Shown piece by piece: positions 467 through 50,885 of a stretch of 64,000 nucleotides of DNA (within the stretch, counting starts at the first letter, position 1; the number at the start of each line of letters is the position of its first letter). The translations under genes were made by a program, and so were the position numbers. The stretch lies in IMG/VR virus record IMGVR_UViG_3300029911_000006, one strand, 5' to 3'. The notes under the pieces are model-generated. The model searched no databases, was not told the origin of the DNA, and saw nothing but the letters and a program-made list of their open reading frames with translations. This DNA comes from a virus (Duplodnaviria; Heunggongvirae; Uroviricota; Caudoviricetes).

Positions 467-843
467 TGGGTAGCCTCACACCTTAGAATTTCCATCTCGA
501 TTTCATCGTACGGATTATCTATCGGGATGTTGTTGAACGTGGCGTAGACGTAACGACCATGCAGTAGCTTGTCCCGGTACTGTTTGAACGTGCGGTTGCG
601 GTGGTGCATCGTGTTCTGGTTCAGGAAGGCGAGGATACGTTGCAACCTGTCAACCTCAACAGACAACGTATCCGCCTTCCTGATACGCAGAACACGTACC
701 TTAGACCGCTGGCACCACAACTCCGACTCGAAGATGCACAGCACATCGAAGTAACGCACGTCCTCGTCTGCGTTGGGGTTATGTTCGCGATGCCATGCGA
801 ACCACCCCTCTACGTCGCCAGACTGAGGGTACTTATCGGCCAT
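463..843 (-). CDS. hypothetical protein (126 aa)
   Basis: ORF coupled on both sides (11-nt overlap with the cca stop, ATGA with the next gene). Confidence 0.55.
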   Translation of the reverse strand: MADKYPQSGDVEGWFAWHREHNPNADEDVRYFDVLCIFESELWCQRSKVRVLRIRKADTLSVEVDRLQRILAFLNQNTMHHRNRTFKQYRDKLLHGRYVYATFNNIPIDNPYDEIEMEILRCEATQ

Positions 844-2131
844 TCGTCAACTCCATGTCCGACATCGCGAACCCTCGTGCGAAGTCCAATGCTTCCTGCC
901 GTGAATCGAAGCGTCTCTCGTCAAAGTTCCCGTTCAACTGCTCCGTCTCCACAGCGAACAAGACCCGAGTGAACATCGGCCCCGGCTTGAAGCCCATGTC
1001 CATCAAATCCTGTCCCATGACCATCGGCACCGGGCGGACAGTTTCCGGCGTCAATGCCCGGAAGCGTTCAACCAGAACCGCACGTGCCATCGTCTCACGC
1101 AAGTCCAAGCCGCCTCTGTCCCTACCCTGAGTCATGTTCACAGTCTGCTCGAACAGGTCAACCCCATGCGACAGGACACCCGGCTTACGAGCGAACCGCT
1201 TGACGGTGGCGTCATCTGCGTTGAGAACTCTATCCAGCTTCTCAGCCACAGCGTTGACGACAACATCCCGCTCTCCTACCGACAGCTTCAGGCTGTTGAC
1301 AGCCATCGCCATTTGCAGGTCACTGGAACAATCGGCAAAGAACATCGCCAGACCCAGCAACGGGTCTTTGGTCGGGAACTTGGTGAACCGCTCCAGCATC
1401 GAAGCGAAGTTCAGAGAGGACGTGAAGCCCAGTCCGAATACCTGAGTCAACAACCCAGTAGAAGCCAAGAGAGTCAGACCCTGAACCGCGAACGGCCCAA
1501 CGACCAGCTTCTTCAGTTCAGCCGCAACTCGCTCCATGCTAACCATCCGTACCCGGCTGTCATTTCGCACTATCGCGTCGAACGTACCTTGCTCCACAGT
1601 GAAGCCCAACCGGGCGACGAAGGAAGCCGCACGCAACATGCGTGCCGGGTCTTCCATGAAACGGTCATCCGGGTTGCCTATGCAGCGAACCAAACCGGCT
1701 CTCAGGTCTGACAAACCGCCAACGTGGTCAACCACGAAGTTGGACGGGTCGCCAGCGGGGCCAAACGGTATCAGGGACATCAGCCCGTTCATGGTGAAAT
1801 CGCGGCGAAGAACATCCTCTTCAGCCGACTCGCTGTAGCGAACTTCGTCCGGGCGGCGTCCATCGGTGTACTCGCCATCTGCACGGTACGTCGCAACCTC
1901 TATCTGGTGACCGTCCACTATGACCACGACGACGCCGAACTTGGCACCGACTGGAGTGGTTTTCTCAAACAGAGGCTGAACCTGCTCCGGGCGTGCGTTG
2001 GTCGAAACGTCGAAGTCCTTGGGGGTTTTTCCCAACACTAAATCTCGTACACAACCCCCCACGAGGTTTCCCTCATACCCTGCTCTACGTAAGGTATTCA
2101 ACACTATACTGGCTGCGGCACTCATATCCAT
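833..2131 (-). CDS. cca: CCA-adding tRNA nucleotidyltransferase / poly(A) polymerase-family head domain
   Basis: Motifs GGCVRD...DFD and RRDFTMN are typical of the class II CCA-adding enzyme head domain. Start ATG (MDMSAAAS) lies 6 nt after a TATACT -10 box, so it is leaderless. Confidence 0.85.
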   Translation of the reverse strand: MDMSAAASIVLNTLRRAGYEGNLVGGCVRDLVLGKTPKDFDVSTNARPEQVQPLFEKTTPVGAKFGVVVVIVDGHQIEVATYRADGEYTDGRRPDEVRYSESAEEDVLRRDFTMNGLMSLIPFGPAGDPSNFVVDHVGGLSDLRAGLVRCIGNPDDRFMEDPARMLRAASFVARLGFTVEQGTFDAIVRNDSRVRMVSMERVAAELKKLVVGPFAVQGLTLLASTGLLTQVFGLGFTSSLNFASMLERFTKFPTKDPLLGLAMFFADCSSDLQMAMAVNSLKLSVGERDVVVNAVAEKLDRVLNADDATVKRFARKPGVLSHGVDLFEQTVNMTQGRDRGGLDLRETMARAVLVERFRALTPETVRPVPMVMGQDLMDMGFKPGPMFTRVLFAVETEQLNGNFDERRFDSRQEALDFARGFAMSDMELTNGR

Positions 2132-2186
2132 ACACACAGTATACCGGAGTCTCAGGTATTCTGGGTACAAATTTGCCAAAATAATT
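2131..2186 (-). promoter_or_regulatory. conserved phage promoter, copy 1 (UP element, -35-like CCCAGA, -10 TATACT); leaderless start of cca
   Basis: Minus strand reads TATTTTGGCAAATTTGTACCCAGAATACCTGAGACTCCGGTATACTGTGTGTATG. Confidence 0.6.
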
Positions 2187-5907: not shown

Positions 5908-7398
5908 CTACTTGCTGTCGAACTCGATGAGGTACTTGATGTTGGACTGCGAGGTACGGTAGACAATCTGCTCGTCGTTCTGGACGCCAGAGACACCAGC
6001 CTTCGCCCAGCAAGAGTCGAAGCCATTCTGACGGCAGTACGAAGCTGCACGGCTGTCGCCATGACCACGGGGAGTGTACGGCTTGCCCATGGCAACGTCG
6101 GCCCGGAACATGTAGCAGTTGCTGTCCCGGCTGCTGCTCCCACCACCCCAGTAGCCGAAGCTGTAGTTCAGCGACTTCGTGCTCTGGTTGGAGAAGTACA
6201 CACCGTTGTCGTACATCGCACCAGTGGTCTGTGCGGTCGAAAGCTGCGTCGGAAGTACGAAGCCACGCTTCAGGATGGAGAGGATGTTGAACACGCGGGT
6301 ACCGTGCCAGAGTTCGCGGATGTTGCCAACCTTCTTACCATCGGCGTCGAAGGCGGAAATCATGTGAGGAATCGTGACCGCGTACACCCGGACAGGCTTC
6401 AGGTGAGAGCAGGAGTGACCCCGGTTGACGGTGGCATAGAACTCAGACTCGATGCTCTTCCAGATGTCCTTGTCGTCCACCAGAGCAAGCTTGCACTCGA
6501 ACAGTGCCTTGCGTGCGATGACAACCTCATCCTTATCGCCACCCTTGGCAGCATCGGCGAGACGCTGTTCGGCGAGTTGCACCGAAGTCTCAAGCTGGTC
6601 AAGCAGCGAAGTCTGAGCGGCGATGTTGATGAAATCGGTGTGCCATCCCTGACGGCGAGTGCCTACGTCCTGCGGCACGAGGCGGAGGTACGTGGAGAGA
6701 AGACCACCACCCGCAGCGTACTTGGCGTTCTCGGTGTCACGCTTCTGCACGTAGGGGAGCATCTTGTCGAGAATCGACCGGGCTTCCGTGATGGCTTCAA
6801 GCTGAACTACGCCGAGAGAGGTCTTCACGAGACCAGAGTCATCAATGTAGACGCCACCCTTATCCTTACCACCAGTCGCCAGATTCAACTCATGACGGTT
6901 GGTGTCGGCCAGCTTCTTCACGAGAGCGGCAGTGAAGGCACATGCACCAGCAATGTCGGTCACCGCTGCTGCCTTGACGGCGACAGAGGTCATTTTGTTG
7001 TCGTAGGAAGAAGAGGAACCAAATGCTTTGGCGGCTGGCTCAGGGGCACCGACAGTCTTGACTTCGGTGTAGGCTGGCTTGATTTTGCCATCCTTGTCAG
7101 CCTTCTGCGGCTTGAGGTTGCCGTACTTGTCGGTCTGTGTCTTGTCGCGAATCTTCGCGTCGAGGTCGGACTGGCTGTCGAGCAACATGCTCTCGCACTT
7201 CTCGATGGGTGCTCCGACCCGGCCCCAAGTGGTGCGGATGTAACCCGTCTCCACCTTGCCGCCACGGCCCGACTGGGTGATTGGCCCGTCGTAAATCTCT
7301 ACCCGGTAGAACTTGTTGTTGTTCTGAATCGGGTCAACGGCGATAAACATCCTCGTCGCGATTACTTTAGTGGTCGTAGCTGTCAGTAGCGTTGCCAT
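5908..7398 (-). CDS. poly(ADP-ribose) polymerase (PARP) homolog with a WGR domain
   Basis: WGR motif FYRVEIYDG...TTWGRVG. Catalytic motifs LWHGTRVFNILSIL (H-G-T), GVYFSNQSTKSLNYS (Tyr) and NIKYLIEFD (Glu) align with the PARP1 H-Y-E signature. The start is leaderless, after promoter copy 4. Confidence 0.85.
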   Translation of the reverse strand: MATLLTATTTKVIATRMFIAVDPIQNNNKFYRVEIYDGPITQSGRGGKVETGYIRTTWGRVGAPIEKCESMLLDSQSDLDAKIRDKTQTDKYGNLKPQKADKDGKIKPAYTEVKTVGAPEPAAKAFGSSSSYDNKMTSVAVKAAAVTDIAGACAFTAALVKKLADTNRHELNLATGGKDKGGVYIDDSGLVKTSLGVVQLEAITEARSILDKMLPYVQKRDTENAKYAAGGGLLSTYLRLVPQDVGTRRQGWHTDFINIAAQTSLLDQLETSVQLAEQRLADAAKGGDKDEVVIARKALFECKLALVDDKDIWKSIESEFYATVNRGHSCSHLKPVRVYAVTIPHMISAFDADGKKVGNIRELWHGTRVFNILSILKRGFVLPTQLSTAQTTGAMYDNGVYFSNQSTKSLNYSFGYWGGGSSSRDSNCYMFRADVAMGKPYTPRGHGDSRAASYCRQNGFDSCWAKAGVSGVQNDEQIVYRTSQSNIKYLIEFDSK

Positions 7399-7399
7399 G

Positions 7400-7460
7400 C
7401 ATGTAGTATACAGAGCTATGGGGTGTTTTGAACAGCTATTTTTGAGAAATTTTTGTGTTT
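7400..7460 (-). promoter_or_regulatory. conserved phage promoter, copy 4 (drives PARP; leaderless)
   Basis: Minus strand reads AAAAATTTCTCAAAAATAGCTGTTCAAAACACCCCATAGCTCTGTATACTACATGCATG. Confidence 0.65.
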
Positions 7461-7672
7461 TCAGGGTACTGACGGAGTATCTCTCGCTGGCGGATTGCCT
7501 CTGTCTGGTTACCCTGACGTTCCTCCACCAGCCGAATGAGTTCATCGGCATGTGCCGTGCATACTTCGCCATCTACGATGCTCAGCTTCGCGTCGTTATC
7601 AGCGGCGACCTGTTTGATAATGTCCACATCGAGGAAGTTGTGCTCAGCCACGTACTCTAACCTATGCCACAT
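7436..7672 (-). CDS. hypothetical protein (78 aa)
   Basis: Track ORF. GGAGACAACA Shine-Dalgarno. It overlaps promoter copy 4. Confidence 0.5.
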   Translation of the reverse strand: MWHRLEYVAEHNFLDVDIIKQVAADNDAKLSIVDGEVCTAHADELIRLVEERQGNQTEAIRQREILRQYPENTKISQK

Positions 7673-10173: not shown

Positions 10174-10767
10174 CTAACGTTGTAGGCTGGTTAGTTCCCG
10201 GCTCAAATTATCGATAGCCTGAAGAGTAAACTCGTTCTCGAACTCAGGTGTAATGTACAGCCGGTCTCGTTTCAGCATCTGGCGAAGGACAGCCGTGCGT
10301 CCCTTCTTCCACAACTCGTCCTCAGCCCAGCGATACTCTTCTCGTACGCTGGTCACGTATGAGTCATACGTGAGGGGCTCTTCGCCCAGCACCGCGAGGT
10401 CGATGTCGTTGATGACGCTTATAGGTTCCGCTGAGGGACTGGTGGCGAGGATATAGCGACCGGCTTCATCCGACTCGTCCATGGTCAAGCCAAGAGCCGA
10501 GGCTACGTGCATAAGGTTGTCGGCACTCATCTGCTCATTGTTGGACTGCTTGGAGTCATAGGTTGAATCGTGCCACCCCCACGCGAACAACTGCACTCGC
10601 GACAGGGGTTTAGAGGGGAATAGTCGGTTGTACACCGACAGCCCATATTCAATGTGACCCCACACGTGATAGAACCTGCTGTCTACAGGCTCCTTGTACC
10701 GGGCTATCAAACGGTCTAGCACCGACTCCCCAGCGGGTGCGTATGTCAAAAACTCTTCAGTAAACAA
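10174..10767 (-). CDS. putative HD-domain phosphohydrolase-like protein (197 aa)
   Basis: YHVWGH...WGWHDSTYD resembles the H..HD metal-binding signature. Tentative. Confidence 0.4.
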   Translation of the reverse strand: MFTEEFLTYAPAGESVLDRLIARYKEPVDSRFYHVWGHIEYGLSVYNRLFPSKPLSRVQLFAWGWHDSTYDSKQSNNEQMSADNLMHVASALGLTMDESDEAGRYILATSPSAEPISVINDIDLAVLGEEPLTYDSYVTSVREEYRWAEDELWKKGRTAVLRQMLKRDRLYITPEFENEFTLQAIDNLSRELTSLQR

Positions 10768-12695: not shown

Positions 12696-13028
12696 TTACT
12701 CCTCTTCTTCAGTCTCTCTGGTACACCAGCTACAGGGTGGGTGCCCCATATGGCAGTAGCAACTCGTCGGAGCCTCGTATTCCGGCTCCGGTTCAGATGC
12801 GGCTTTAGGCTTACGATTTGGTATGCCCAGTTTCTTGTTGAGTGCGTAGCGTGCTCTAGCACGTTCCTTGCGTCTCTCATGTTTAATGTGTCTAACTTGA
12901 CGCGCTTGCTCCCCCATTATTCGCGATAGAGCCATAAACCCATCGAAGATGTCGTGTACGACATGAGGGCCGGAATCATGCGATGCCTGTACGATTTTGT
13001 TTATTTCCTTTTGAGCCTCATCGCTCAT
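12696..13028 (-). CDS. hypothetical protein with a C-terminal Cys/His cluster (CYCHMGHPPCSWC)
   Basis: AGGATGCGTG-ATG Shine-Dalgarno. It overlaps the upstream HNH gene tail. Confidence 0.5.
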   Translation of the reverse strand: MSDEAQKEINKIVQASHDSGPHVVHDIFDGFMALSRIMGEQARQVRHIKHERRKERARARYALNKKLGIPNRKPKAASEPEPEYEAPTSCYCHMGHPPCSWCTRETEEEE

Positions 13029-13581
13029 CACGCATCCTTAGTGGGTGGTCTTCGGGGGTGCAACCCCCATACCGTTTAGCATTGTGACAATTAGCACAGA
13101 GAAGGTGTAAATCGTCTCGTTTAGGTTGACTCAGCACCATCTTGAAGTACCGAGAGCCTCTGATTGAAGGTGGTAGAGCTTTTCTCTCTACGTTACCATC
13201 GTCGTTCTTGTGGTCGAGTTGGAGGTACTTGTAGTTTGAAGTTCCACAGCAAGTACACCGACCGCCATACCTTGTTATTACTCGAATTCGTACGTCTCGG
13301 TGTTGAGCCTTTGACTTCTTTCTTCCTCGCTCCCTACACACCGAACAACTGGTGATACCCTGAACTGCCTTACGGGTGAGGCACTGCCTACAGTTACCTT
13401 CGGGTCTATTATACTTCTGTTTTTGCGATGTAGCCTTTCTTACTTTTCTACAACCAGCACATCGTAAGACTCCTTCAACGGGAGGGTTCTGCCCACAGGC
13501 AACGCATACCCCCGACTCCCGTCTACTGTGATACTTCATCAGGGCGTTCTCAGCCCGTTTCCTTCTCTCTTCTAAAGTCAT
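13018..13581 (-). CDS. HNH endonuclease with an N-terminal Cys-rich zinc-finger region
   Basis: HNH motif LQLDHKNDDG...LLCANCHNAK. GGAGG Shine-Dalgarno sits inside the hairpin AGCCTC-ttatatg-GAGGCT. Confidence 0.7.
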   Translation of the reverse strand: MTLEERRKRAENALMKYHSRRESGVCVACGQNPPVEGVLRCAGCRKVRKATSQKQKYNRPEGNCRQCLTRKAVQGITSCSVCRERGRKKSKAQHRDVRIRVITRYGGRCTCCGTSNYKYLQLDHKNDDGNVERKALPPSIRGSRYFKMVLSQPKRDDLHLLCANCHNAKRYGGCTPEDHPLRMRDER

Positions 13582-13588
13582 ATCCCAG

Positions 13589-13607
13589 CCTCCATATAAG
13601 AGGCTGA
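13589..13607 (-). promoter_or_regulatory. hairpin sequestering the Shine-Dalgarno of the HNH gene (AGCCTC/GAGGCT, 6-bp stem)
   Basis: Seen directly; the GGAGGCT sequence forms the 3' arm. Confidence 0.3.
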
Positions 13608-13619
13608 AAGTATCCAAAC

Positions 13620-14645
13620 TCAACTACACGCGGGTATTTTCAATCCATTGAACCTTACGGGTTGGCTCATCCAGTGTTCGTCGGTTTGTACATGACCCTT
13701 CCGAACCCACTTAGCCATGAGGGTGGGGAACTCCTTCAAGGTGAAGCTCCTCGTGGGTCGAAACACGAGACCCTCCTGCCGTTCGAAGTTTAGAGTAGAA
13801 GCAAGGTCGTCCACCAATCCATCCTTCCACAATCCTCGATACAGAACGGGGACGGTAGGTAGGTTCAACAGCCCAGCGTACTCAGCCGTATCATCCCATG
13901 ATAGACACTTATGCCCCTCCCAAATATTGAAGATGAAGAAGTAAGAAGATAAGTCAAAGTATTCGATGGAGTGTATGGCTGTGACGTTCTCCCCGATAAC
14001 ACGAAACCCAAGGGGGATGTCGTTGGCAACCTGAGCCCAAATTGCTTTTATGAACGTCCGAGAAGGATGGGGACTGAATTCCAGTGACCTAGCATGGATG
14101 AAGTCCCTCGCCATGGTCGTACCCTCTCCATCCATCTTCTCGGTTACTACCACTTCTAACCCGTCCCATTGGTCAGTGGACGTGTGCATCCGGTCGTCAT
14201 TGCTAAGTCCGGGGGAGGAGGGCCAGTGGAAGGTTTTTGGGTACTTGTACTTATCCGTGAAGAGGTACAGGTGGTTCTTTAGGGCTCGTTGGACTCCTTC
14301 TTCGAAGAAGAGTTCCCCCATGAAACGCTGTCCGTTTGGAAGGACAGGGTTGCCCCACTTGTCGTAGGCTCCCTCTTCTTCGAGATGCGGAGGGTACACT
14401 GGTCGAGTGATTCCGGCGTCGAGGCGTAGAGTATCACAGTCGAGTCCAGTGGACTCGGCGTCAAGGTGACATCCTCCACACAAGGTGACCCCGTTAGAAA
14501 GGTAATATCCGCCATCAGGAAATAGTCTCCGTTCGAGAATGTGATGAGCGTCCACACCCGGCTGGCCGCAGTGGACACACGTATGCTTGTCTCTGGCGAA
14601 GACCTCTTCGCGGAAGTCGTCTCGGGTTAGAAGTACAGGTGTCAT
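13620..14645 (-). CDS. HNH nuclease domain fused to an ATP-dependent RNA ligase-like nucleotidyltransferase
   Basis: N-terminus: HTCVHCGQ...DAHHILERR...NGVTLCGGCH (HNH). C-terminus: TEKMDGEGT (motif I KxDG), FRVIGEN (III), EGLVFR (IV), AKWVRK (V). Size fits the Rnl family. Confidence 0.55.
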   Translation of the reverse strand: MTPVLLTRDDFREEVFARDKHTCVHCGQPGVDAHHILERRLFPDGGYYLSNGVTLCGGCHLDAESTGLDCDTLRLDAGITRPVYPPHLEEEGAYDKWGNPVLPNGQRFMGELFFEEGVQRALKNHLYLFTDKYKYPKTFHWPSSPGLSNDDRMHTSTDQWDGLEVVVTEKMDGEGTTMARDFIHARSLEFSPHPSRTFIKAIWAQVANDIPLGFRVIGENVTAIHSIEYFDLSSYFFIFNIWEGHKCLSWDDTAEYAGLLNLPTVPVLYRGLWKDGLVDDLASTLNFERQEGLVFRPTRSFTLKEFPTLMAKWVRKGHVQTDEHWMSQPVRFNGLKIPACS

Positions 14646-18132: not shown

Positions 18133-18563
18133 TCCCCCATGTTGAGAACAATTACCGGCTTCTTGTCACCTGTCATCGCCTTCAACTCTTCGAGAGGGTC
18201 GATGTGGGTGTGCATGTCCGCACCCATCTCATAGACGGGAAGCATCTCAGGAAGGCCGAAGGCTTCGCGAACGGACTCCACCCATGCGGCTACCAGTCCC
18301 GGCGCGGTTTCCTTCGTCATGCCTTCGAGGGTTACCGTCAACCTCTCCAGATGCGACTGCATCTCCGGGGCGTCATCCATCAGGGTGGGGAACTGGGTTG
18401 CAAGCCACGGCCTACACTCGGTCATCGCACGGGGCAACTGGTGCGTGAACAGGTCGTCGCCGGTGAGGAAGTTCAGGATGTCGTAAACCGCTTCTATGTG
18501 CCTAGAGGCAACAAGGCGTCCGGTGGTGACGCTCAGCACGTCACCGATGTGATAACTCTTCAT
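18129..18563 (-). CDS. hypothetical protein (145 aa)
   Basis: Start MKSYHIG is preceded by a GGAGGATTG Shine-Dalgarno. TGATGA overlap. Confidence 0.5.
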   Translation of the reverse strand: MKSYHIGDVLSVTTGRLVASRHIEAVYDILNFLTGDDLFTHQLPRAMTECRPWLATQFPTLMDDAPEMQSHLERLTVTLEGMTKETAPGLVAAWVESVREAFGLPEMLPVYEMGADMHTHIDPLEELKAMTGDKKPVIVLNMGE

Positions 18564-19048
18564 CAATCCTCCGTGTAGAAGATGCGGTTGATTTCTTTTA
18601 ATGCTTGGTCGGGGGTTTGGTAGTGAACAAATACCCCCCCCGCTGCTTCCCACAAATGTCGGTACTTCAAGCGGTCATCGACCAGAACATCACCGGGCGA
18701 CATAAATAGATGTTTTTCTTCAGAGAGGCAGACAATGGTGGGCACGGAGGGGAAGTGGTGGGCCGTCCACTCAACCTTGTCGGTCTTGTCGTTTTCGTAG
18801 CCGTCACCCTCGTGGGCTCCAGTGAGAATCGTGGGCTTCAGGTGTTTGACAGCTTCGTAGAACTGGATAGCTCCGGGCATCAGAGGGAGGTCGCGGTAGA
18901 ACCTATTCTTAGAAGTACGTAGGAATACCCACGCCTCATCATACCCGACTTTCTCCTTCAATTGTGCGAAGGACATGCCGAAGTGGGTGAGCATGGCGGT
19001 GTTGAAATCAGCGAGTACGCCGTCGCAGTCAAGGAATAGTCTCTTCAT
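18563..19048 (-). CDS. HAD-family 5'(3')-deoxyribonucleotidase-like (LFLDCDGVLADF)
   Basis: The DxDGVLADF N-terminal motif is characteristic of the NT5C/5'-nucleotidase HAD subfamily. Confidence 0.6.
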   Translation of the reverse strand: MKRLFLDCDGVLADFNTAMLTHFGMSFAQLKEKVGYDEAWVFLRTSKNRFYRDLPLMPGAIQFYEAVKHLKPTILTGAHEGDGYENDKTDKVEWTAHHFPSVPTIVCLSEEKHLFMSPGDVLVDDRLKYRHLWEAAGGVFVHYQTPDQALKEINRIFYTED

Positions 19049-19677: not shown

Positions 19678-20037
19678 TCAAGTTGAATGATTCCGATGGA
19701 CTTGCCTATGTCCATGGGAATGTGTTCGACTGTGACTTCCACTTGGTCGCCCCACCAGAGCCGGTCGCTCCGGGTCTTCAGCTTCAGGCCGTGGGACTTC
19801 AACAGCCGGTTCAATTTCGGGAGCATAGTGTGGTCGAATAAACCGAAGGCTGCTTTTGGGTTCCGTTGTTTCACTTTGGCACCGCTCTTTCATGTAGTCG
19901 TGTGCGAAACTCCAGACTGCCTCTGGTAAGTGTTCCGCCGTGATGTGTTCGTCCACTTCAATCGCGTTGATGAACAGGCCTTCCTCGCAACAGGAACAGT
20001 ACACAGGGAACTCCAACTCTTCTAGTGGGCCGCTCAT
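19678..20037 (-). CDS. hypothetical protein; its 3' third may shift into the overlapping frame (19635..19826)
   Basis: The N-terminal two-thirds are protein-like. The C-terminus in this frame is low-complexity, whereas the overlapping frame is protein-like. Confidence 0.4.
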   Translation of the reverse strand: MSGPLEELEFPVYCSCCEEGLFINAIEVDEHITAEHLPEAVWSFAHDYMKERCQSETTEPKSSLRFIRPHYAPEIEPAVEVPRPEAEDPERPALVGRPSGSHSRTHSHGHRQVHRNHST

Positions 20038-20843
20038 TTGGTAGCCCAGTTCTTGTTGATGTAAGGTTCGAGTTGCGACAGATGGCAGTCAGCCGCACGC
20101 TTGTCATTGCGAAGGTGCAGGAGTGTAGGCTGAACGATGTGGCGTTCCTGAGTCGCATAGAGGAAGCGGACTTCGATGACCTGACCCGGAGCCGGGTTGA
20201 ACTTGTTCCGCAGAGAGCAACCAGAGATGCGGTGGACTTGACCCTTCGAGTTCACCATGCCAATCTCAACGCTATCCTTGCCCTCAGGGCTGGGGCCGAT
20301 GACGAACGCATCCGCCATCTTCCAGAACTTCAATTTAAAATGTTGCTCAGCCCTACCAGTACGATAGGACTTCCGTAGATTCTTCGAGACGATGCCCTCG
20401 CCCTTCGCGGCCAGTACCTGCTCCCACAGGGCTTTCTTCTCCGCAGCGGTACGGGCAGTCTTGACCGTGATGAGGTTCTTGGAGTGGTTGTCGAACTCCT
20501 GATGGTACCGGGCTTCACGGTACTCGTAAACGTCGTTGGTGATAACCTCATCGCCAAGGATGAGAGCATCGAAGACGAAGAACGTGGTCTTGACCAGTTC
20601 GCCGTCGATTACGAATGTGTCGAGGGGGTGGGACAGAAGGGCGTGGCGAACCTGAATGGGGAGGGCCTTGCTTGACTTCTCGCCCTCACGGTTGAACCAG
20701 AAAAGCTGACCGTCCTGCTTGGCAATCATCAGCCGATGACCGTTGTGCTTCTCCTGATACCCGTAGTCCGGGTTGGTCAGCATCCGCTGGAAATGAAGCT
20801 CGGTCGTCTCGGTGAGAAGTTCGGCTTGGATACCCTGCATCAT
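20034..20843 (-). CDS. ATP-dependent DNA ligase-like nucleotidyltransferase (269 aa)
   Basis: Motif I EKHNGHR (KxNGxR variant), FVIDGELV (III), EGIVSK (IV), LKFWK (V). Leaderless start after promoter copy 7. Confidence 0.6.
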   Translation of the reverse strand: MMQGIQAELLTETTELHFQRMLTNPDYGYQEKHNGHRLMIAKQDGQLFWFNREGEKSSKALPIQVRHALLSHPLDTFVIDGELVKTTFFVFDALILGDEVITNDVYEYREARYHQEFDNHSKNLITVKTARTAAEKKALWEQVLAAKGEGIVSKNLRKSYRTGRAEQHFKLKFWKMADAFVIGPSPEGKDSVEIGMVNSKGQVHRISGCSLRNKFNPAPGQVIEVRFLYATQERHIVQPTLLHLRNDKRAADCHLSQLEPYINKNWATK

Positions 20844-34649: not shown

Positions 34650-35438
34650 CTACGCCAAAAGTTTCTTGAACATGTTGCCAAACGTCTTTGCCGACCAACC
34701 CTTCAGGTCGGACACCTGTCCGTCCCCAATCTCCACGATGCGAGTACGACCGGCTGCGTCGTAGGCTACATCCACGGAGAAGAAGGGACTGTCAATCCGA
34801 TGTGCGGCTGCTTTCAAGACTTCCTCATCCGCAGAGCGGAACCCGGAACCTACCTTACCATTCAGAATGAAGTATCGGCGTTCATCATTCAACTCTTCAT
34901 AGCGACGGATGCAGAGACCGCCTTCTAGTCCCCCACGAAACTTCTTCATCAACTCGATGCACTCCATTGCCTCGGAGGCGTCGTCGCATACAGAGCCCTT
35001 CCCCCGCGTCGTGCTGAGAGACTTGACGTAATCCTTCAGGAAGAACCGCTCCCAACCGCGAGACTTCAACAGTTCGAAAGAGTCACGCAGGTTCGCTGTC
35101 TCCAGCCACTTGTTGGTGAACACGATGGTGTCCGCCGTGTACTCGACCAGTTGCTGATACCAGTTGGGGATGTGATGGGTGTTCAGGTACTGGTCAACGC
35201 TGGTGTACAGCATCGCACCGACCGCATCAACCTTCTCCGACATCTTCAGGTACTGGTCAGCGGTAAGCATCCAGCCCCGGTACATGACAGTCTCCCCAGC
35301 CACGACCCGATGAACCCGCCCCTCTTCGAGAGAGAAGAGTGCTGAGGCATACCCATTGGAGAGTTCCACAGCCTGAGGCTTGAAGAACTCGTCCATATGG
35401 GTAGGGGTCAAAGGGTCTGCTGGGTAGATGAACTGCAT
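34650..35438 (-). CDS. hypothetical protein, tentatively ATP-grasp-like (262 aa)
   Basis: The C-terminal block VDVAYDAAGRTRIVEIGDGQVS resembles an ATP-grasp C-domain. Weak support. Confidence 0.35.
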   Translation of the reverse strand: MQFIYPADPLTPTHMDEFFKPQAVELSNGYASALFSLEEGRVHRVVAGETVMYRGWMLTADQYLKMSEKVDAVGAMLYTSVDQYLNTHHIPNWYQQLVEYTADTIVFTNKWLETANLRDSFELLKSRGWERFFLKDYVKSLSTTRGKGSVCDDASEAMECIELMKKFRGGLEGGLCIRRYEELNDERRYFILNGKVGSGFRSADEEVLKAAAHRIDSPFFSVDVAYDAAGRTRIVEIGDGQVSDLKGWSAKTFGNMFKKLLA

Positions 35439-36778: not shown

Positions 36779-37735
36779 TTACGCCGCTACAGCCTTGGCC
36801 TTCTTCGCCTTGACGGCGACGGGCTGGTTGAGCGAAGCCTGAAGCATCGCCATGACATCGACCGGGGAGGTAACAGCCGGGGCCGGAAGTGCGACCGGAG
36901 CCGGGGTGCGTCCCATAATCTTGTCGTTGATGAGGCCCTTGAAGGAGCGAGTGAAGGAATCCTCGTAGTCGGTTGCGTCGAAGTCACCCGAGAGCATGTC
37001 GATGAGCATTGCGGCCAGTTCGACCTTCTTGTCATCCACAGCGACCGTCTGCCACTTGTCGCAGGAGCGGACTTCGTTGTCGAAGTACATGTAGTGAACG
37101 ACCATGCCGTTCGTGCCGTAGGGACGGATGACGACGGTCTGCTCACGACCACGCTGTGCGGTCTGAGCGATGGCTACGACGCCACGGCCAACCATGGCTG
37201 CACGGAGGGTGCTGAACGTCTCTTCGAAGCCTTTGTCGGGAACGAGGTACTCAGCATCCGCGAAGTAGATGGGGTCGATGGAAGTCATCTTGACGAACTT
37301 CTCCACGGTCATGCGCTTGTCTGAGATAACAGAGCAGCCCTTCTTCTCGTCATCGCTGATGATGGCGAACTCGCCCTTGGCGTACTGGTAGCCCTTGAGG
37401 ATGTTGGTGCCTTCAACGGTCTCGTTGCAGGTCGGGCAGGACATACCTGCACGCTTCAACTGAGTGTAGATGGGCGTCATACCCGTCTTGTCCGAGTTGC
37501 AGTGATGTACCTGATTGAGTTCCACCTTCTCTTCCTCGGTGGCCTTCAGGGTCTTGACGGTGAGATTGACCAGCCCGAAGCCAAGGACGCCAGTCCACGT
37601 TGCACGGTTGGCGATACCCTTCTCGGCGGGGGCGGTGCTAATCTGCGGCTTGGCTGAGGCAGCGGGTGCCACCAGAGCAGCAGAGAGGGAGGCGATGGAG
37701 GCGGGGGCGGTAGGAGTGGTAATCTTCTTTGCCAT
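36779..37735 (-). CDS. ku: Ku protein (bacterial NHEJ DNA-end-binding protein) homolog
   Basis: N-terminal RATWTGVLGFGLVNLTVKTLKA matches the bacterial Ku motif. QVHH...C...CPTC aligns with the Cys-containing segment of some bacterial Ku proteins. Leaderless start after promoter copy 12. Confidence 0.8.
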   Translation of the reverse strand: MAKKITTPTAPASIASLSAALVAPAASAKPQISTAPAEKGIANRATWTGVLGFGLVNLTVKTLKATEEEKVELNQVHHCNSDKTGMTPIYTQLKRAGMSCPTCNETVEGTNILKGYQYAKGEFAIISDDEKKGCSVISDKRMTVEKFVKMTSIDPIYFADAEYLVPDKGFEETFSTLRAAMVGRGVVAIAQTAQRGREQTVVIRPYGTNGMVVHYMYFDNEVRSCDKWQTVAVDDKKVELAAMLIDMLSGDFDATDYEDSFTRSFKGLINDKIMGRTPAPVALPAPAVTSPVDVMAMLQASLNQPVAVKAKKAKAVAA

Positions 37736-37800
37736 ACACACAGTATACCGGAGTGAACACGTTTTCGAACAACTAATTTTGAAGTTTTTCGCCTATTTTC
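37735..37800 (-). promoter_or_regulatory. conserved phage promoter, copy 12 (drives ku)
   Basis: Minus strand reads GAAAAACTTCAAAATTAGTTGTTCGAAAACGTGTTCACTCCGGTATACTGTGTGTATG. Confidence 0.65.
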
Positions 37801-37930: not shown

Positions 37931-39208
37931 TTAGTAATCGTCGTCTTCGTCGTCATCATCCAACTCCGAGTCATCTTCATCCTCGTAGTCGTCGTCCGAG
38001 TCATCGAACTCGTCATCGTACTCGTCGTCATCTTCCACGTCCGAGTCGTCAACAGCGTAGTAGCCGTTATCCAGCGGGAAGTTGTATCCCCGGAGGGTAG
38101 CGATAGCCATGAGAATCTTGTCGATGGTCTCCTGCTCAGGGTGCAGGGCACGCTCAGCGTTGTAGACCTCAGAGAGCTTCATGTCAGCAGCCTTGGCAAC
38201 TTCCCCCAAGGTCTTGCCAGCAGCCTCACGGTGGAAGCGGAGAGGGTTCGCGAACAACTTGGACTGTGCCGGGGCAATGTCCATCCGCGAGAAGCGACGG
38301 AGCCAGTTCTTGAGACGAGCGACCGATGCCTTCTTGAAGCTGGCGGAAGTCATCTTGCCACGCTTCAGGAGACGCTTGACGCTCGGCAGGGCCTTGACCT
38401 GCTTGATGAGTTCCTGACGGTCACCCGAGAGTTCCACGACAGGCTGCATCATGACCGGAGTGTCGGTGCGACCTTCAATCATCTCGTTGTACTCGACCTC
38501 ACGCAGAACCTCGTAACGCCACGTGCGACCCTTGGAGTAGCCGTAGTCCACCGGGATGGCAACAACGTCAGCCGGGTTGACCTTGACTTCCACAATGCGG
38601 CTCCCACCTTCACGCCACGCACTGCCGAAGTTGGGCAGGTACGCCTTAGAGCAGAAGTGGAGACCACGGGAGCACTCGCGACGACGGTCAGGGTCAACAG
38701 CCTTGCGTGGCATAACCACTGGGGGACGGCCCGGACGGTTGTCGAAGCGACCCGTGCGGATGTCCATGAAGTTGTTCCGAACCTTCTTGTAGGCGAGGAA
38801 GCAGCCGTCGTCGGTCAGGGCGAAGCGACCATTGCTCAGCCACTCGTAGACCTCGTTGACGGTATCCGCATCCGGGTTCAGGTACAGATTGTCCATGAAG
38901 CGGAGTAGGTGGGCGACAGGCTTGCCGTGCTCGATGAGTTCGAGAACCTTGGTCGTCAGCACGTTCTCAACCTTCTGACCCTTGTAGGTCACGCCGTCAG
39001 CAGTGACGTTGACCTTACCGTGCGAACGCTCGGCAATCTGAGTCGCCAGCGAGAGCAGCTTCGGTACTCGCGAGAAGTTCTCACGCGACAGTGCCTTGTG
39101 CAGAGCCTTGAATGTTGGTTGACCCTTGCTCACAGGGTAGCTACGGCCACCGACTACCACGGATAGGTAATCGTTCTGGAGCACGTATGGAATCGCTTGG
39201 CTAGGCAT
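37931..39208 (-). CDS. rIIB-like protein (putative) with a long acidic C-terminal tail
   Basis: It lies immediately downstream of the rIIA-like gene and is coupled to it (T4 rIIA-rIIB order). GAGGAG Shine-Dalgarno. Confidence 0.4.
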   Translation of the reverse strand: MPSQAIPYVLQNDYLSVVVGGRSYPVSKGQPTFKALHKALSRENFSRVPKLLSLATQIAERSHGKVNVTADGVTYKGQKVENVLTTKVLELIEHGKPVAHLLRFMDNLYLNPDADTVNEVYEWLSNGRFALTDDGCFLAYKKVRNNFMDIRTGRFDNRPGRPPVVMPRKAVDPDRRRECSRGLHFCSKAYLPNFGSAWREGGSRIVEVKVNPADVVAIPVDYGYSKGRTWRYEVLREVEYNEMIEGRTDTPVMMQPVVELSGDRQELIKQVKALPSVKRLLKRGKMTSASFKKASVARLKNWLRRFSRMDIAPAQSKLFANPLRFHREAAGKTLGEVAKAADMKLSEVYNAERALHPEQETIDKILMAIATLRGYNFPLDNGYYAVDDSDVEDDDEYDDEFDDSDDDYEDEDDSELDDDDEDDDY

Positions 39209-45070: not shown

Positions 45071-45847
45071 TTATACCGTAATCGTCTTTTCAAAGTGTGC
45101 TGCAAGTCCACCACCGGCCAACCGGATAAGCCATCCGTCGGAGCCAATCTTAGTATCCCCACGCTTGGTGGCGAACATGGGTTCGATGGCGATACGCATA
45201 CCCTTCTCCAGCTTCACCGGAGCGATGTCAGGTACTATGGCATGGTAATCACTACGATTACTCGGGCGGTCAGGATGACCCATCGGCTTCCAGTCTTCCC
45301 GCTTCTCCATGTGGTAGGTAACCTCATTCGGGATGAAGGGCTCCATATGAAGCTCGGTGCCGATACCGTGTCCACCATAGCCGTGGATGACCGCAAGCTC
45401 TTCACGCTTGGCTACCGCTTCAATGGCCTTGCCGATGTCGTGCGTGGTGTTTCCCGGCTTCGCCATGTGGATGCCAGCCTGAAGGGCCTCTTGCGTGGCC
45501 TTGAGGAGCCTACGGGCGATGCCTGAGCCCTTACCGATGAGAATGGTCGTAGCTCCGTCATCATATTGCCCCTCGGTATCCTTGGTGCCGATATCCAACT
45601 TGATAACGTCGCCGTCTTCAAACGGACGCTCATCCGGGATGCCATGGATGACTTCCTCATTGATGCTTACGCACATCACGCTCGGATAGGCGTTGCCCTT
45701 GAAGCCGTTCGGCTTATAGCCAAGGAACGCCGGTTCAACCTTGAACACCTTCATGAGGTTGGCAGCTTGAGCTTCAAGCTGCTTGCCGGTTGCTCCCTCC
45801 ACTGTCATTGCCGCGAGGATATCAAGGATGCTTTCGAGGACTGTCAT
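45071..45847 (-). CDS. map: methionine aminopeptidase (type I MetAP)
   Basis: SVMCVSINEEVIHGIPDERPFEDGDVIKLDIG and the downstream HGIGTELH and E-rich metal ligand pattern. AGGAG Shine-Dalgarno. Confidence 0.85.
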   Translation of the reverse strand: MTVLESILDILAAMTVEGATGKQLEAQAANLMKVFKVEPAFLGYKPNGFKGNAYPSVMCVSINEEVIHGIPDERPFEDGDVIKLDIGTKDTEGQYDDGATTILIGKGSGIARRLLKATQEALQAGIHMAKPGNTTHDIGKAIEAVAKREELAVIHGYGGHGIGTELHMEPFIPNEVTYHMEKREDWKPMGHPDRPSNRSDYHAIVPDIAPVKLEKGMRIAIEPMFATKRGDTKIGSDGWLIRLAGGGLAAHFEKTITV

Positions 45848-47875: not shown

Positions 47876-48433
47876 TTACCAAATCAGGTTATGCAGATTG
47901 AGGTACTTGGCGGGAACCGTGTCAGTCAGCCACACGCCATTAGGGGCAAGATAGAAGGATAAACCCTCTTCATGCATTGCGGCTGCATCGACAGGTACCA
48001 CTATAGGGTTACCATGTCGCGACCCTACTGTCCGTGCGGTGTCACACAGAGCGGAAAGATGGACGTGCTGCCGCTTGCCCTTGAGCAAGCCCTGCTTTTT
48101 GATTGAGTCGAGAAACCGGGTGGCGGTTCCGTGGTAGAGAATGCCGGGAGGGATAACGACCTCGTACTTCAGGTCTACCTCAATACTGTGACCTTGCACG
48201 GCCCGGATAGATTTTCCGTCGTCCGAGAACTGGAACCGCTTCTTGTCGTTGTCTTCCACGACTTCATCGAGTTCCTCGCGATTGATTTTATATCCCTTAC
48301 TCGCCAGACCAGTCAACAGGTTGGATACGGTACACCAACCATCTGAAGTAAGAGTGAGGGAAGCCTCTTCAGGTTTATGCCGGAGTACAAGACTCATGAA
48401 CCTGCTCGTTCGGACTAGGGCTTTGTTATCCAT
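47876..48433 (-). CDS. kptA: RNA 2'-phosphotransferase Tpt1/KptA
   Basis: Near-colinear match to E. coli KptA: SRFMSLVLRHKPE, DKKRFQFSDDGKSIRAVQGHS, LYHGTATRFLDSIKKQGL, HVHLS, NGVWLT. Confidence 0.9.
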   Translation of the reverse strand: MDNKALVRTSRFMSLVLRHKPEEASLTLTSDGWCTVSNLLTGLASKGYKINREELDEVVEDNDKKRFQFSDDGKSIRAVQGHSIEVDLKYEVVIPPGILYHGTATRFLDSIKKQGLLKGKRQHVHLSALCDTARTVGSRHGNPIVVPVDAAAMHEEGLSFYLAPNGVWLTDTVPAKYLNLHNLIW

Positions 48434-49409: not shown

Positions 49410-49425
49410 AAACTTGTATTCTACT

Positions 49426-50240: not shown

Positions 50241-50252
50241 ACTAGCTAATAC

Positions 50253-50335: not shown

Positions 50336-50341
50336 CAAAGG

Positions 50342-50539: not shown

Positions 50540-50587
50540 ATGTGTTCTCCTGTCAGTTGAATTCGTTTATAATGCGTGGATGAAACA

Positions 50588-50809: not shown

Positions 50810-50885
50810 ATGCTCATCCTTCCTTTCAGTTTGACTACTCAGCCATGCAGCTTTGTCTAGACCTATGCCTCGGTCTGAGTGGCTT

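Follow-up and report, generated by a model that had tools for sequence, protein, structure and literature searches.

A phage HNH-RNA ligase fusion gene as a further member of a widespread family, and its possible role in polynucleotide repair

Why a phage should carry a nuclease and a ligase in one polypeptide is the question raised by a gene in the stretch of Caudoviricetes DNA analysed here (64,000 nucleotides in all, referred to as the window, and part of a 432-kb genome). An earlier note had read the gene as a single HNH-ligase fusion, had called such a fusion unusual, and had placed it in a Tpt1-dependent route of RNA repair. The gene, its parts and its downstream neighbour are as follows.

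13620..14645, minus strand: HNH-RNA ligase fusion gene (341 aa, ATG start, one uninterrupted ORF)
14436..14633, minus strand: predicted HNH (beta-beta-alpha-metal) zinc-finger nuclease domain (aa 5-70)
14256..14435, minus strand: conserved connecting segment between the HNH and nucleotidyltransferase (NTase) domains (aa 71-130)
13638..14255, minus strand: predicted ATP-dependent polynucleotide (RNA) ligase NTase domain (aa 131-336)
14136..14138, minus strand: codon of Lys170, the predicted adenylylated active-site lysine of motif I
13018..13623: free-standing HNH gene, directly downstream of the fusion

We found that the gene is indeed one intact ORF, to which the minus strand can now be added, and that all HNH and ligase motifs quoted earlier are present in its translation. 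The HNH motifs are CVHC (aa 23-26), AHHI (33-36), SNGV (50-53) and CGGCH (56-60), with C23, C26, C56 and C59 as the predicted zinc ligands and H34-H35, N51 and H60 as the predicted catalytic residues. The ligase half carries motif I KMDG (170-173), motif III GENV (218-221), motif IV EGLVFR (291-296) and motif V AKWVRK (311-316), and its NTase residues stand in the order K170, R186-S187 (motif Ia), E219, FFIFNIW at 236-242 (motif IIIa), E291-G292 and K312/R315; these residues, with D172 and G173, are invariant across alignment A1. No domain follows aa 336 of 341, and the chain ends about 25 aa past motif V. The connecting segment has invariant residues of its own in the same alignment (Y94-D95-K96-W97, R107, G110, L112, F113 and F129), and its profile was also matched in 10 'mid+lig' representatives without HNH. 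The AlphaFold2 model of the fusion was confident over both domains and the linker (mean pLDDT 89.5, pTM 0.79; pLDDT 86-96 in the connecting segment), and DSSP of the model revealed an N-terminal module of helices and short hairpins and a mostly non-regular linker, with no barrel.

Because free-standing HNH genes are common in the phage and one lies directly downstream, the N-terminal half could be a homing-endonuclease HNH that a recent insertion or a frameshift has joined to the ligase, and the earlier note had itself named a separate, frameshifted HNH gene as a danger to its reading. We rejected this origin, whose probability we consider negligible: the fusion is a single ORF with full-length homologs, it aligns colinearly over both domains in more than 200 homologs from phages, bacteria and an archaeal virus, and the HNH half is the better conserved one, with 62% mean pairwise identity compared with 50% in the ligase half.

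Profile searches assigned both halves. The PF09414 RNA_ligase profile matched aa 164-314 over its positions 2-171 of 171 (E 2.2e-25, 90.2 bits with a cut-off of 27), and PHROG 24030, 'RNA ligase', matched the fusion end to end (E 6.4e-102; aa 5-335, profile 3-340 of 342). The PF01844 HNH profile scored slightly below its 21.4-bit cut-off (E 9e-4, 19.8 bits), and several PHROG HNH families matched with E values as good as 5e-9. The possibility raised earlier that the C-terminal half might turn out to be a DNA ligase did not hold, as PF01068 gave no match to the fusion at E <= 1 and there is no sequence past motif V to form the OB domain of DNA ligases. A sequence search of the PDB with the single protein and with the A1 profile returned no significant ligase match and only weak best matches (IscB HNH, E 0.04; NgrRnl, E 0.23), and the comparison with the PDB is informative at the level of fold, not of sequence; the weak NgrRnl profile alignment (query 153-303, chain 154-326) places K170 at or beside the NgrRnl nucleophile Lys170. 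In the fold comparison the ligase domain was Rnl2-like, with T4 Rnl2 and NgrRnl as its nearest relatives. The HNH domain has the signature CxxC...[DH]H...N...CxxC-H and the fold of the zinc-finger, McrA/IscB-like class, and its nearest solved relatives (IscB, phage GVE2 HNH, EcoKMcrA, TagI and Cap5) all cut DNA. Taken together, the predicted product is an HNH nuclease joined to an RNA-ligase-family nucleotidyltransferase, with active-site motifs that are intact and conserved, in agreement with the earlier assignment.

The domains around the NTase are another matter. The Rnl2 layout, defined as an N-terminal NTase followed by an Rnl2-specific C-terminal domain (PMC7261155), was not found in the fusion; the domain order agrees with that of Rnl5, but HNH and linker occupy the place of the N-terminal OB fold; and the ligase C-terminal domain, kinase and CPD modules of Rnl6/Trl1 are absent. 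The flanking domains of the fusion match none of Rnl1-6.

Homologs of the fusion architecture number more than 2000. The best 120 database homologs are about 335-350 aa long with a query coverage of 96-100%, and full-length phage copies occur in the jumbo phages Salicola SCTP-2, Caulobacter CcrBL9 and Acinetobacter ME3 and in halovirus HGTV-1; a further 79 fusion-family loci were located in cellular genomes or MAGs. Identity to the fusion ranges from 27 to 53% among the GenBank phage members, the nearest standing at 53%, and reaches 76% in the nearest metagenomic protein. The GenBank record of HGTV-1 gene 233 reads 'RNA ligase; HNH endonuclease domain', and the ME3 member is gp200. Moreover, Iyer et al. 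2021 described Rnl2-family ligases of jumbo phages fused to an N-terminal HNH, along with a repair toolkit, and credited HNH-Rnl2 fusions to Burroughs & Aravind 2016 (PMC7824862). Given this abundance, a PHROG of its own, the GenBank annotation and the published description (PMC7824862), a nuclease fused to a ligase can no longer be called unusual. The phage gene is a further member of a widespread, already noted HNH-ligase family and not a new invention, and 'known', for this family, means known as annotation.

We then consider what conservation says about the HNH half. Among about 260 homologs with an HNH, 219 retain all of K170, D172, G173, R186, E219, E291, G292, K312 and R315, and the HNH residues, including catalytic H35, N51 and H60, are retained in 85-92 of 92 representatives; the domain is predicted to be a catalytically intact, metal-dependent nuclease. 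A zinc finger that does not cut, and only holds the nucleic acid in place of the OB or C-terminal domains, would suit a ligase domain with no other flanking substrate-binding domain, and Rnl5 too has an N-terminal accessory domain (PMC7261155). However, such a module would not need the catalytic residues that are retained beyond the zinc ligands, and standalone ligases of the same clade, 210-220 aa long, manage without any HNH module, so we regard a purely binding role as highly improbable. Divergence of the HNH and ligase halves was correlated across 161 fusions (Mantel r = 0.60, 0 of 1000 permutations as high), and among 45 representatives at 50% identity the correlation did not reach significance (r 0.12, 247 of 2000 permutations as high). 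As the signal appears only with closer homologs included, it indicates vertical co-inheritance of the two halves and nothing subtler.

The RNA-maintenance genes that the earlier note had placed elsewhere in the window were recovered in the cases of Tpt1, the CCA-adding enzyme and the tRNA array, and one that it had missed, RlaP, adds to them.

833..2179, minus strand: CCA-adding/poly(A) polymerase-family tRNA nucleotidyltransferase (PF01743 E 1e-34, PF12627 E 1e-11)
20034..20843: DNA ligase, a separate gene 6 kb from the fusion (PF01068)
47876..48433, minus strand: Tpt1/KptA RNA 2'-phosphotransferase (PF01885 E 8.4e-49)
49323..58408, minus strand: tRNA array (Arg x4, Lys x4, Asn x3, Gln x2, Met, His, Trp and one undetermined)
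50256..50335: weaker extra tRNA-like match (Rfam RF00005)
60361..61347, minus strand: RlaP, an RNA-ligase-associated Pol-beta nucleotidyltransferase (PF10127 E 1.1e-14)

Small corrections apply to several of the earlier calls. The ORF of the CCA-adding enzyme runs to 2179 and not to 2131, and the array stands with 17-18 tRNA genes in place of about 20 (17 by ARAGORN; 17 Rfam RF00005 matches, one of them the extra). The HD-like phosphohydrolase at 10174..10767 (197 aa) matched PHROG 19425 'phosphohydrolase' at E 1e-17 and has a YHxxxH...WHD pattern, but no Pfam family matched at E 10, and the PTH2-like gene at 33733..34287 spans positions 15-114 of the 115-position PF01981 profile, but only at E 0.047 and 14.3 bits, where the cut-off is 23; both putative assignments are weak. 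The HD-like protein was also considered as an HD-Pnk and gave no match to the HD-Pnk profile. Splicing of tRNA introns by HNH and ligase was another candidate that we rejected, since the five tRNAs of 87-91 nt carry long variable arms and not anticodon-loop inserts, and they score as plain tRNAs in Rfam. The immediate neighbours of the fusion gene are small uninformative ORFs, and its gene block holds the DNA ligase and an NT5C deoxynucleotidase, with similar neighbours in ME3 and HGTV-1. Distances of 12-47 kb separate the fusion from RlaP, Tpt1 and the CCA-adding gene, and the cooperation of these three with its ligase is suggested by guilt by genome only. RlaP extends RNA 3' ends by 1-2 nucleotides and so leaves a 3'-OH of the kind that suits 5'-phosphate ligases (PMC12776372); judging from this described role (PMC7824862, PMC12776372), it is a probable pathway partner that would refill lost nucleotides, and its pairing with the fusion ligase is our own suggestion.

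The intact Tpt1 in the same genome had led to the earlier model, in which the ligase joins 2'-phosphate ends in the manner of Trl1 and Tpt1 clears the phosphate from the junction, as a counter-defence against anticodon nucleases whose chemistry differs from that of T4 Pnkp/Rnl1. Tpt1, however, lies 33 kb from the fusion gene, and none of the 79 cellular loci has a Tpt1 at a distance of 6 kb or less from the fusion; nor was one found beside the four ligase/HD-Pnk operons examined (see below). In GenBank, phages with Tpt1 infect Erwinia, Dickeya, Klebsiella, Clostridioides and others, phages with the fusion infect Caulobacter, Salicola, Ralstonia, Acinetobacter, Halogranum and others, and the two sets of host genera do not overlap; Tpt1 and the fusion thus show neither co-localisation nor phyletic coupling. 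Nor is the fusion ligase of the Trl1/Rnl6 type, which to our knowledge is the sole ligase type that requires a 2'-PO4. The model does draw support from Runella, in which a Tpt1 gene adjoins a ligase/HD-Pnk pair whose ligase left standard ends unsealed, and for which Shuman's group floated a Tpt1-linked pathway (PMC6097658). With distance, genomic distribution and ligase type all against it, we consider the Tpt1-dependent chemistry very unlikely for the fusion.

A different partner emerged from the cellular loci. We found that the ligase clade overlaps or abuts genes of the HD-Pnk type (HD+AAA_33) in only 9 of the 79 loci and in all four of the additional chromosomal loci that we looked at, and proteins in which the ligase is fused to an AAA_33 kinase domain also exist. 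HD-Pnk is an end-healing enzyme of DNA and RNA (PMC6097658). Four arrangements were distinguished: an intact HNH-ligase fusion with HD-Pnk directly after it (loci L028 and L063); an HNH with a degenerate ligase without KxDG, then an active ligase and HD-Pnk (L075-L077, L079 and L081); a ligase, HD-Pnk and a free HNH (L085); and a ligase-like gene, an HNH+mid gene and HD-Pnk (L086). That the HNH is kept beside ligase and HD-Pnk in all four suggests a role of the HNH in the repair pathway. RtcB adjoins fusion-family genes in Armatimonadales loci. Within the phage window, no HD-Pnk homolog was found by hmmsearch at E <= 10 and no Pnkp, 2H or RtcB gene was found either, so that the search for a polynucleotide kinase proposed in the earlier note came back empty for this part of the 432-kb genome.

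These arrangements also bear on a proposal by Iyer et al. 2021 (PMC7824862), in which the two halves have unrelated tasks: RNA repair falls to the ligase, and the HNH serves as a DNase for attack on the DNA of the host or of competing phages. Such a weapon is in keeping with the solved structures nearest to the HNH, all of them from DNA nucleases or restriction enzymes, and with one homolog that carries the JGI label McrA. On the other hand, a weapon leaves unexplained why the HNH keeps its place beside ligase and HD-Pnk through four gene arrangements, even where its own ligase half has decayed, why it is conserved above the ligase and co-diverges with it, and why the fusion occurs in ordinary bacterial chromosomes, with no obvious superinfection target. 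We regard the offensive role as unlikely.

We instead favour, at roughly even chances, the reading that the fusion is a two-activity polynucleotide repair enzyme whose HNH acts in the ligase's own pathway. HNH cleavage yields 3'-OH and 5'-phosphate products, the same ends that ATP-dependent ligases of the fusion type need. The domain identities, their conservation and the gene associations are observed; what the enzyme acts on, in which sequence its steps run and what the HNH contributes belong to the model, which is as follows. The HNH, not an unrelated weapon, would trim or process damaged or blocked ends of a break ahead of resealing, for example in tRNAs cleaved by host anticodon nucleases. 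Lys170 would then take AMP from ATP and hand it to the 5'-phosphate end, as motifs I-V and the fold imply, whereupon the 3'-OH end would attack and the break would be sealed. In other genomes, the healing partner would be the HD-Pnk kinase/phosphoesterase encoded beside the ligase; elsewhere in the window, RlaP and the CCA-adding enzyme could plausibly help by refilling nucleotides, and so could the tRNAs that the phage itself encodes.

The ligase most likely acts on RNA, on account of its RNA-ligase fold and family and of the separate phage DNA ligase. Counterpoints to the repair reading are the DNA-cutting relatives of the HNH and the healing of DNA as well as RNA by HD-Pnk, and because HD-Pnk acts on both kinds of end, RNA is a probable substrate and no more. 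The lack of HD-Pnk, Pnkp, 2H and RtcB genes in the window, the uninformative neighbours of the fusion gene, its distance from RlaP, Tpt1 and the CCA-adding gene, and the small share of cellular loci with HD-Pnk linkage (9 of 79) also count against it. The enzyme might thus process and seal nicks in DNA or DNA-RNA hybrids, such as ribonucleotide nicks or broken replication or packaging intermediates, and have no part in tRNA repair. This would fit the HNH relatives, HD-Pnk (PMC6097658), the DNA ligase and NT5C in the gene block, and the nearest ligases, T4 Rnl2 and NgrRnl, which seal duplex nicks and not single strands (PMC7261155). It fits poorly with a family and fold that group the fusion with RNA ligases, with a phage that already encodes a DNA ligase plus Ku, with the lack of the OB domain that is universal in DNA ligases (PMC7261155), and with the RtcB adjacency in some loci, which indicates RNA. 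On balance, a DNA or hybrid substrate appears rather improbable to us.

The Runella ligase encoded upstream of HD-Pnk complicates the picture of two-activity repair, as it self-adenylylates and yet sealed no standard 3'-OH/5'-PO4 substrate tested (PMC6097658). It probably belongs to the same clade as the fusion ligase, as judged solely from the identical operon layout; no protein labelled Runella was among the best 120 homologs of a Saprospiraceae HD-Pnk-linked ligase. Its failure to seal suggests that simple nick sealing may be the wrong picture for the fusion. A bolder proposal, which we regard as a long shot, is that HNH and ligase work only as a unit, an excise-and-reseal machine whose demands on ends or substrate are not the standard ones. 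The HNH would remove a damaged or modified stretch of nucleotides, for example in an anticodon loop, RlaP refilling or HD-Pnk healing would possibly precede sealing, and the ligase would reject any product other than one that the HNH and linker of the same protein hold in place. If true, this would explain why an HD-Pnk-linked ligase adenylylates and seals no conventional 3'-OH/5'-PO4 substrate, and would make the fusion a seventh RNA ligase architecture, with the nuclease built in.

The phage gene itself is an ordinary member of a family already recognised by databases and by two comparative-genomics papers, and its value is as a pointer to that family, strongly conserved through huge phages, bacteria and an archaeal virus and outside all six RNA ligase families that have been defined by structure. 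The HNH travelling with the ligase/HD-Pnk operon leads to a testable three-activity model of nuclease, kinase/phosphoesterase and ligase, which may be relevant to the puzzling inability of the HD-Pnk-linked ligase to seal standard substrates.

Compared with known systems, the fusion is closest to the jumbo-phage HNH-Rnl2 family, which has the same architecture, length and motifs and the same kind of genome, that of a tRNA-rich phage of several hundred kb; sequence divergence alone distinguishes it. The HD-Pnk-linked ligases are also close. The Aureispira anguillae P0368 ligase, encoded by an ORF that overlaps HD-Pnk, shows 38% end-to-end identity with the fusion ligase domain and shares with it the signatures KY(P/G)(K/R)T(F/Y)H...S(P/Q)G(L/V)SNDD and VRK(G/N)HVQTDEHW. 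The Aureispira and Runella slithyformis (Munir et al. 2018, PMC6097658) ligases are, however, standalone proteins of about 220 aa without HNH, and their operons pair the ligase with an HD-Pnk that the phage window lacks.

Other known systems compare as follows. T4 Rnl2 and trypanosome REL1 have an N-terminal NTase and a signature helical C-domain, whereas the fusion has HNH and linker and then the NTase, and their identity to the fusion ligase is only 16-17%. In Rnl5 of Naegleria and Deinococcus the N-domain is an OB fold (PMC7261155), unlike the HNH zinc finger and linker of the fusion. Bacterial LigD, which joins DNA ends together with Ku, belongs to the DNA ligases; it includes an OB domain, and its phosphoesterase is unrelated to HNH. 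T4 Pnkp and Rnl1, directed against PrrC, follow the same logic as that proposed for the fusion, in which a phage ligase would restore broken tRNA amid genes for tRNA maintenance.

We found that the fusion protein is encoded by a single unbroken ORF of 341 aa at 13620..14645 on the minus strand, and all motifs quoted by the earlier note were located within it: CVHC (residues 23-26), AHHI (33-36), SNGV (50-53) and CGGCH (56-60) in the HNH half, and KMDG (170-173), GENV (218-221), EGLVFR (291-296) and AKWVRK (311-316) in the ligase half. Residues 164-314 matched the Pfam family RNA_ligase (PF09414) with an E value of 2.2e-25 (90 bits against a threshold of 27 bits). The Pfam HNH family PF01844 matched a little below its family threshold (E 9e-4), and about a dozen PHROG HNH families matched, reaching E 5e-9. 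Moreover, PHROG 24030 'RNA ligase' aligned with residues 5-335 over 340 of its 342 profile positions (E 6e-102). Since this match spans both halves, the entire fusion, and not its parts alone, represents an established phage protein family. The predicted domain assignments are far beyond chance. A frameshift or gene-merging artefact was excluded by the best 120 database homologs, which are 335-350 aa long with 96-100% query coverage and are colinear with the fusion through both halves. The lysine motifs were retained, the C-terminal domain did not class with DNA ligases or capping enzymes, and the HNH was not a separate gene.

A word-indexed search returned 2271 homologs of the fusion at E <= 1e-5, and an exhaustive search of cluster representatives returned 4100 clusters at E <= 1e-3, 443 of them at E <= 1e-30. 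The best 150 representatives comprised 86 with HNH, linker and ligase, 5 with HNH and ligase, 10 with linker and ligase, 1 with HNH only and 48 with ligase only; the last group includes proteins of ~210 aa, an AAA_33 kinase-ligase fusion and one topoisomerase-IB-ligase fusion. The latter, the 940-aa homolog P0209 from outside the window, carries a type IB topoisomerase core (PF01028, E 5e-27) upstream of the same linker and ligase module, and is a second, independent coupling of a strand-cleaving enzyme to this ligase. Full-length fusions are encoded by Salicola phage SCTP-2, Caulobacter phages CcrBL9 and CcrSC, Ralstonia phage RsoM2USA, Acinetobacter phage ME3 and uncultured huge phages, as well as by the archaeal virus HGTV-1 (27% identity). 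RefSeq names the phage proteins 'RNA ligase', and the HGTV-1 record notes an 'HNH endonuclease domain'. According to Iyer et al., the RNA repair repertoire of jumbo phages comprises KptA/Tpt1, RlaP (RNA-ligase-associated Pol-beta nucleotidyltransferase), CCA-adding enzymes and tRNA arrays (PMC7824862). In view of the existing PHROG family, these homologs and annotations and that survey, the earlier statement that a nuclease fused to a ligase is unusual was wrong; the fusion adds one more member to a family that is known but biochemically uncharacterised. The core interpretation, an HNH nuclease joined to an RNA ligase in a phage rich in RNA-maintenance genes, was right, and its reading as an RNA repair/maintenance toolkit is the published view (PMC7824862). 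The source of the window is itself a huge (jumbo) phage: a JGI metagenome contig of 431,749 bp encodes a protein identical to the fusion, and the closest GenBank relatives belong to phages of 230-490 kb.

The following layout emerged from an alignment of 32 homologs and the AlphaFold2 model derived from that alignment (pLDDT 89.5, pTM 0.79).

Predicted domains of the fusion protein
About residues 5-70: HNH zinc-finger domain
Residues 71-130: conserved, mostly non-regular connecting segment with invariant Y94-D95-K96-W97, R107, G110, L112 and F113
Residues 131-336: nucleotidyltransferase domain, extending nearly to the C-terminus

Both catalytic centres are intact and conserved at the sequence level. 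Among the 92 representatives of 50%-identity clusters that carry an HNH, N51 was kept in all, C23, C26 and C56 in 90 each, H34 and H35 in 87 each, C/H59 in 86 and H60 in 85. Nine ligase residues (K170, D172, G173, R186, E219, E291, G292, K312 and R315) were all intact in 219 of the ~260 HNH-bearing homologs. Over 161 fusions, mean pairwise identity was higher in the HNH half (62%) than in the ligase half (50%), and the two halves co-diverged (Mantel r 0.60, reached by 0 of 1000 permutations); in the 45 most divergent representatives alone the correlation was not significant. Conservation of both centres, together with the co-divergence of the two halves, indicates that purifying selection acts on both active sites and that the halves are passed on together as a single unit.

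We also observed that five of the best 150 representatives (P0125, P0131, P0132, P0141 and P0157, all outside the window) carry an insertion of ~170-390 aa directly after the ligase motif I KxDGE, a point corresponding to residue ~177 and nucleotide ~14115 of the window. The P0125 insertion, the sole one of the five scanned with Pfam, is an intein that contains a homing endonuclease of the LAGLIDADG type (PF14890 and PF03161). Inteins are usually located at catalytic sites in important genes.

The neighbours of fusion homologs were then clustered at 79 cellular loci, and recurrent clusters were annotated. These loci came from scanning prokaryotes at one genome per species, and some of them lie on complete chromosomes (Leptospira, Devosia, Imbroritus, Mesorhizobium, Variovorax and Achromobacter). 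Directly after the ligase in nine of the 79 loci lies a ~375-aa protein with HD and AAA_33 P-loop kinase domains, the end-healing enzyme HD-Pnk. An intact HNH-ligase fusion abuts HD-Pnk at two of them (L028 and L063). Five loci from Saprospiraceae/Lewinellaceae MAGs (L075, L076, L077, L079 and L081) share a three-gene row at about 5950-8800 of each locus, consisting of an HNH-linker protein with an intact HNH motif and a ligase half lacking KxDG (e.g. MLQRGG in place of EKxDGE), a 220-aa ligase predicted to be of the active type, and an HD-Pnk gene overlapping the ligase's 3' end. From this arrangement we suspect that the pseudo-ligase acts as a scaffold for the nuclease. The order is ligase, HD-Pnk, free HNH at L085, and ligase-like gene, HNH-linker gene, HD-Pnk at L086. 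The standalone ligase formed a two-gene operon with HD-Pnk, with overlapping ORFs, at 4 of 4 further chromosomal loci, including that of Aureispira anguillae, whose ligase is 38% identical to the window ligase domain over its full length (E 2e-36). Three Armatimonadales loci have RtcB directly upstream of the fusion, and at two further loci it is close by. Altogether, there is genetic coupling between the ligase clade and an end-healing kinase/phosphoesterase, and the HNH module persists in the HD-Pnk operon with or without fusion to an active ligase. The same ligase/HD-Pnk layout was described in Runella slithyformis by Shuman's laboratory, where the ligase formed ligase-AMP but sealed no standard 3'-OH/5'-PO4 substrate tried (PMC6097658). 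Judging by gene layout, the Runella ligase is likely a member of the same clade.

To survey the window, we searched 110 minus-strand ORFs against Pfam and added precomputed annotations. All window genes lie on the minus strand.

Features of the window
833..2179, minus strand, CCA-adding enzyme
5908..7572, minus strand, PARP-like protein, 554 aa (PF00644, E 4e-19; PHROG 23333 'polymerase')
18563..19048, minus strand, NT5C
20034..20843, minus strand, small ATP-dependent DNA ligase, 269 aa (PF01068)
30698..33283, minus strand, major-vault-protein-like, 861 aa (MVP_shoulder E 9e-25, Vault_3 E 2e-9)
34650..35438 and 52799..53716, minus strand, two R2K-clade ATP-grasp proteins (PF14243/PF18299)
36779..37741, minus strand, Ku (PF02735, E 3e-34)
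About 37931..39208, minus strand, rIIB-like
45071..45847, minus strand, M24 peptidase
47876..48433, minus strand, Tpt1 (E 8e-49)
49323..58408, minus strand, tRNA array
60361..61347, minus strand, RlaP

Neither a polynucleotide kinase nor a 2H phosphoesterase nor RtcB was among the 25 listed of the 27 matching Pfam families. The putative HD-like protein at 10174..10767 matched PHROG 19425 'phosphohydrolase' (E 1e-17) and has a YHxxxH...WHD pattern, but had no Pfam or NCBIfam match, and the HD-Pnk profile failed to match it as well. For the ORF at 33733..34287, the PF01981 alignment spans nearly the whole profile but is sub-threshold (E 0.047, 14.3 bits against 23), and a PTH2-like hydrolase is possible. 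The immediate neighbours of the fusion are uninformative, with a 169-aa cysteine-rich protein upstream and further a row of small ORFs without assigned function. Directly downstream, a free-standing HNH endonuclease gene (13018..13623, minus strand; PHROG 2255, E 2e-8) has no counterpart in a related phage's syntenic region (L006), a presence/absence typical of a mobile homing endonuclease; a second such gene, matching PF01844/PF14279, lies at 51158..51727 (minus strand). Ku and the small DNA ligase could be a phage-encoded end-joining pair. Major-vault-protein domains are unexpected in a phage, the PARP-like protein and Tpt1 are two NAD+-using enzymes of the ADP-ribosyltransferase fold, and, of the two R2K genes, one adjoins the ORF with the weak PTH2-like match and the second lies within the tRNA region.

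The tRNA array contains genes for Lys (4), Arg (4), Asn (3), Gln (2), His, Trp and Met. The anticodon nucleases PrrC, colicin D and colicin E5 target tRNAs for Lys, Arg and Asn-His, respectively, which we take to overlap with several window specificities. Five minus-strand genes of 87-91 nt (49323..49409, 55555..55641, 55936..56026, 57502..57590 and 57877..57966) encode tRNA-Arg (CCT, ACG, CCG), tRNA-Lys (CTT) and tRNA-Asn (GTT) with long variable arms, unusual in these normally short-arm tRNAs. The 3' CCA is gene-encoded in the tRNAs whose sequence was read, and a 69-nt tRNA-like gene (56263..56331) has no anticodon call. Several gaps of 200-700 nt at 55800..58230 (minus strand), such as 57970..58230, look GC-rich and possibly structured; they held no convincing ORF and no Rfam match at gathering thresholds.

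The earlier note had proposed a Tpt1-dependent chemistry. The window Tpt1 is real, but nothing ties it to the fusion ligase, and the sole point in favour of such a link is the Runella cluster, whose ligase refuses ordinary ends (PMC6097658). The Tpt1 gene lies 33 kb from the fusion, Tpt1 occurred within 6 kb of the ligase at 0 of the 79 cellular loci and likewise was absent at the four ligase/HD-Pnk operons, and the fusion ligase is not Trl1-like. Furthermore, the hosts of GenBank phages with Tpt1 (98 records) are Erwinia, Dickeya, Klebsiella, Serratia, Clostridioides, Bacillus, Listeria and Yersinia, whereas fusion-bearing phages have Caulobacter, Salicola, Ralstonia, Acinetobacter, Halogranum and others as hosts, and at most three records are possibly common to both sets. 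We therefore consider Tpt1-linked chemistry highly improbable.

HNH nucleases produce 3'-OH and 5'-phosphate ends, and ATP-dependent ligases require such ends, acting through lysyl-AMP and then an adenylylated 5'-phosphate. We propose, giving the whole model an even chance, that the HNH acts within the repair pathway of the ligase. Its task would be to trim or open up ends that are damaged or blocked, so that HD-Pnk, where present, could heal them, RlaP or the CCA-adding enzyme could refill them, and Lys170 chemistry could seal them; the likeliest clients in this phage would be tRNAs attacked by host nucleases. The main rival, a published suggestion, has the HNH acting as a weapon against DNA, unrelated to the ligase (PMC7824862). 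It is favoured by the fact that every close solved HNH relative cuts DNA, but it leaves unexplained both the persistence of the HNH in the HD-Pnk operon and its high conservation, and we think it unlikely. What is added here is the tie between the fusion family and the HD-Pnk operon, and the observation that the nuclease module is not incidental but travels with healing-and-sealing genes.

The ligase domain was further compared by fold with known nucleotidyltransferases. The highest scores were obtained with the T4 Rnl2 NTase domain (Rnl2, 14.9) and the Naegleria RNA ligase (Rnl5, 14.3), followed by the Methanobacterium RNA ligase (Rnl3) and trypanosome REL1 (Rnl2), both 13.0, Trl1 (Rnl6, 11.4), the best DNA ligase (11.3) and capping enzymes (at most 8.5). 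Foldseek ranked the relatives in the same order, and a sequence search against solved structures found none significantly similar to the ligase. The modelled fold thus predicts an RNA ligase. That the fusion repairs nicks in DNA or hybrids is, in our judgement, quite unlikely; the same phage has a DNA ligase of its own (PF01068). Flanking domains distinguish the six RNA ligase families that are defined by structure, with the NTase domain N-terminal to a family-specific C-domain in Rnl1-4 and Rnl6, and C-terminal to an OB fold in Rnl5 (PMC7261155). The fusion shares its domain order with Rnl5, with the HNH in place of the OB fold, and, unlike Rnl1-4 and Rnl6, is without any C-domain. Its catalytic core is Rnl2/Rnl5-like, and structurally it stands outside all six families.
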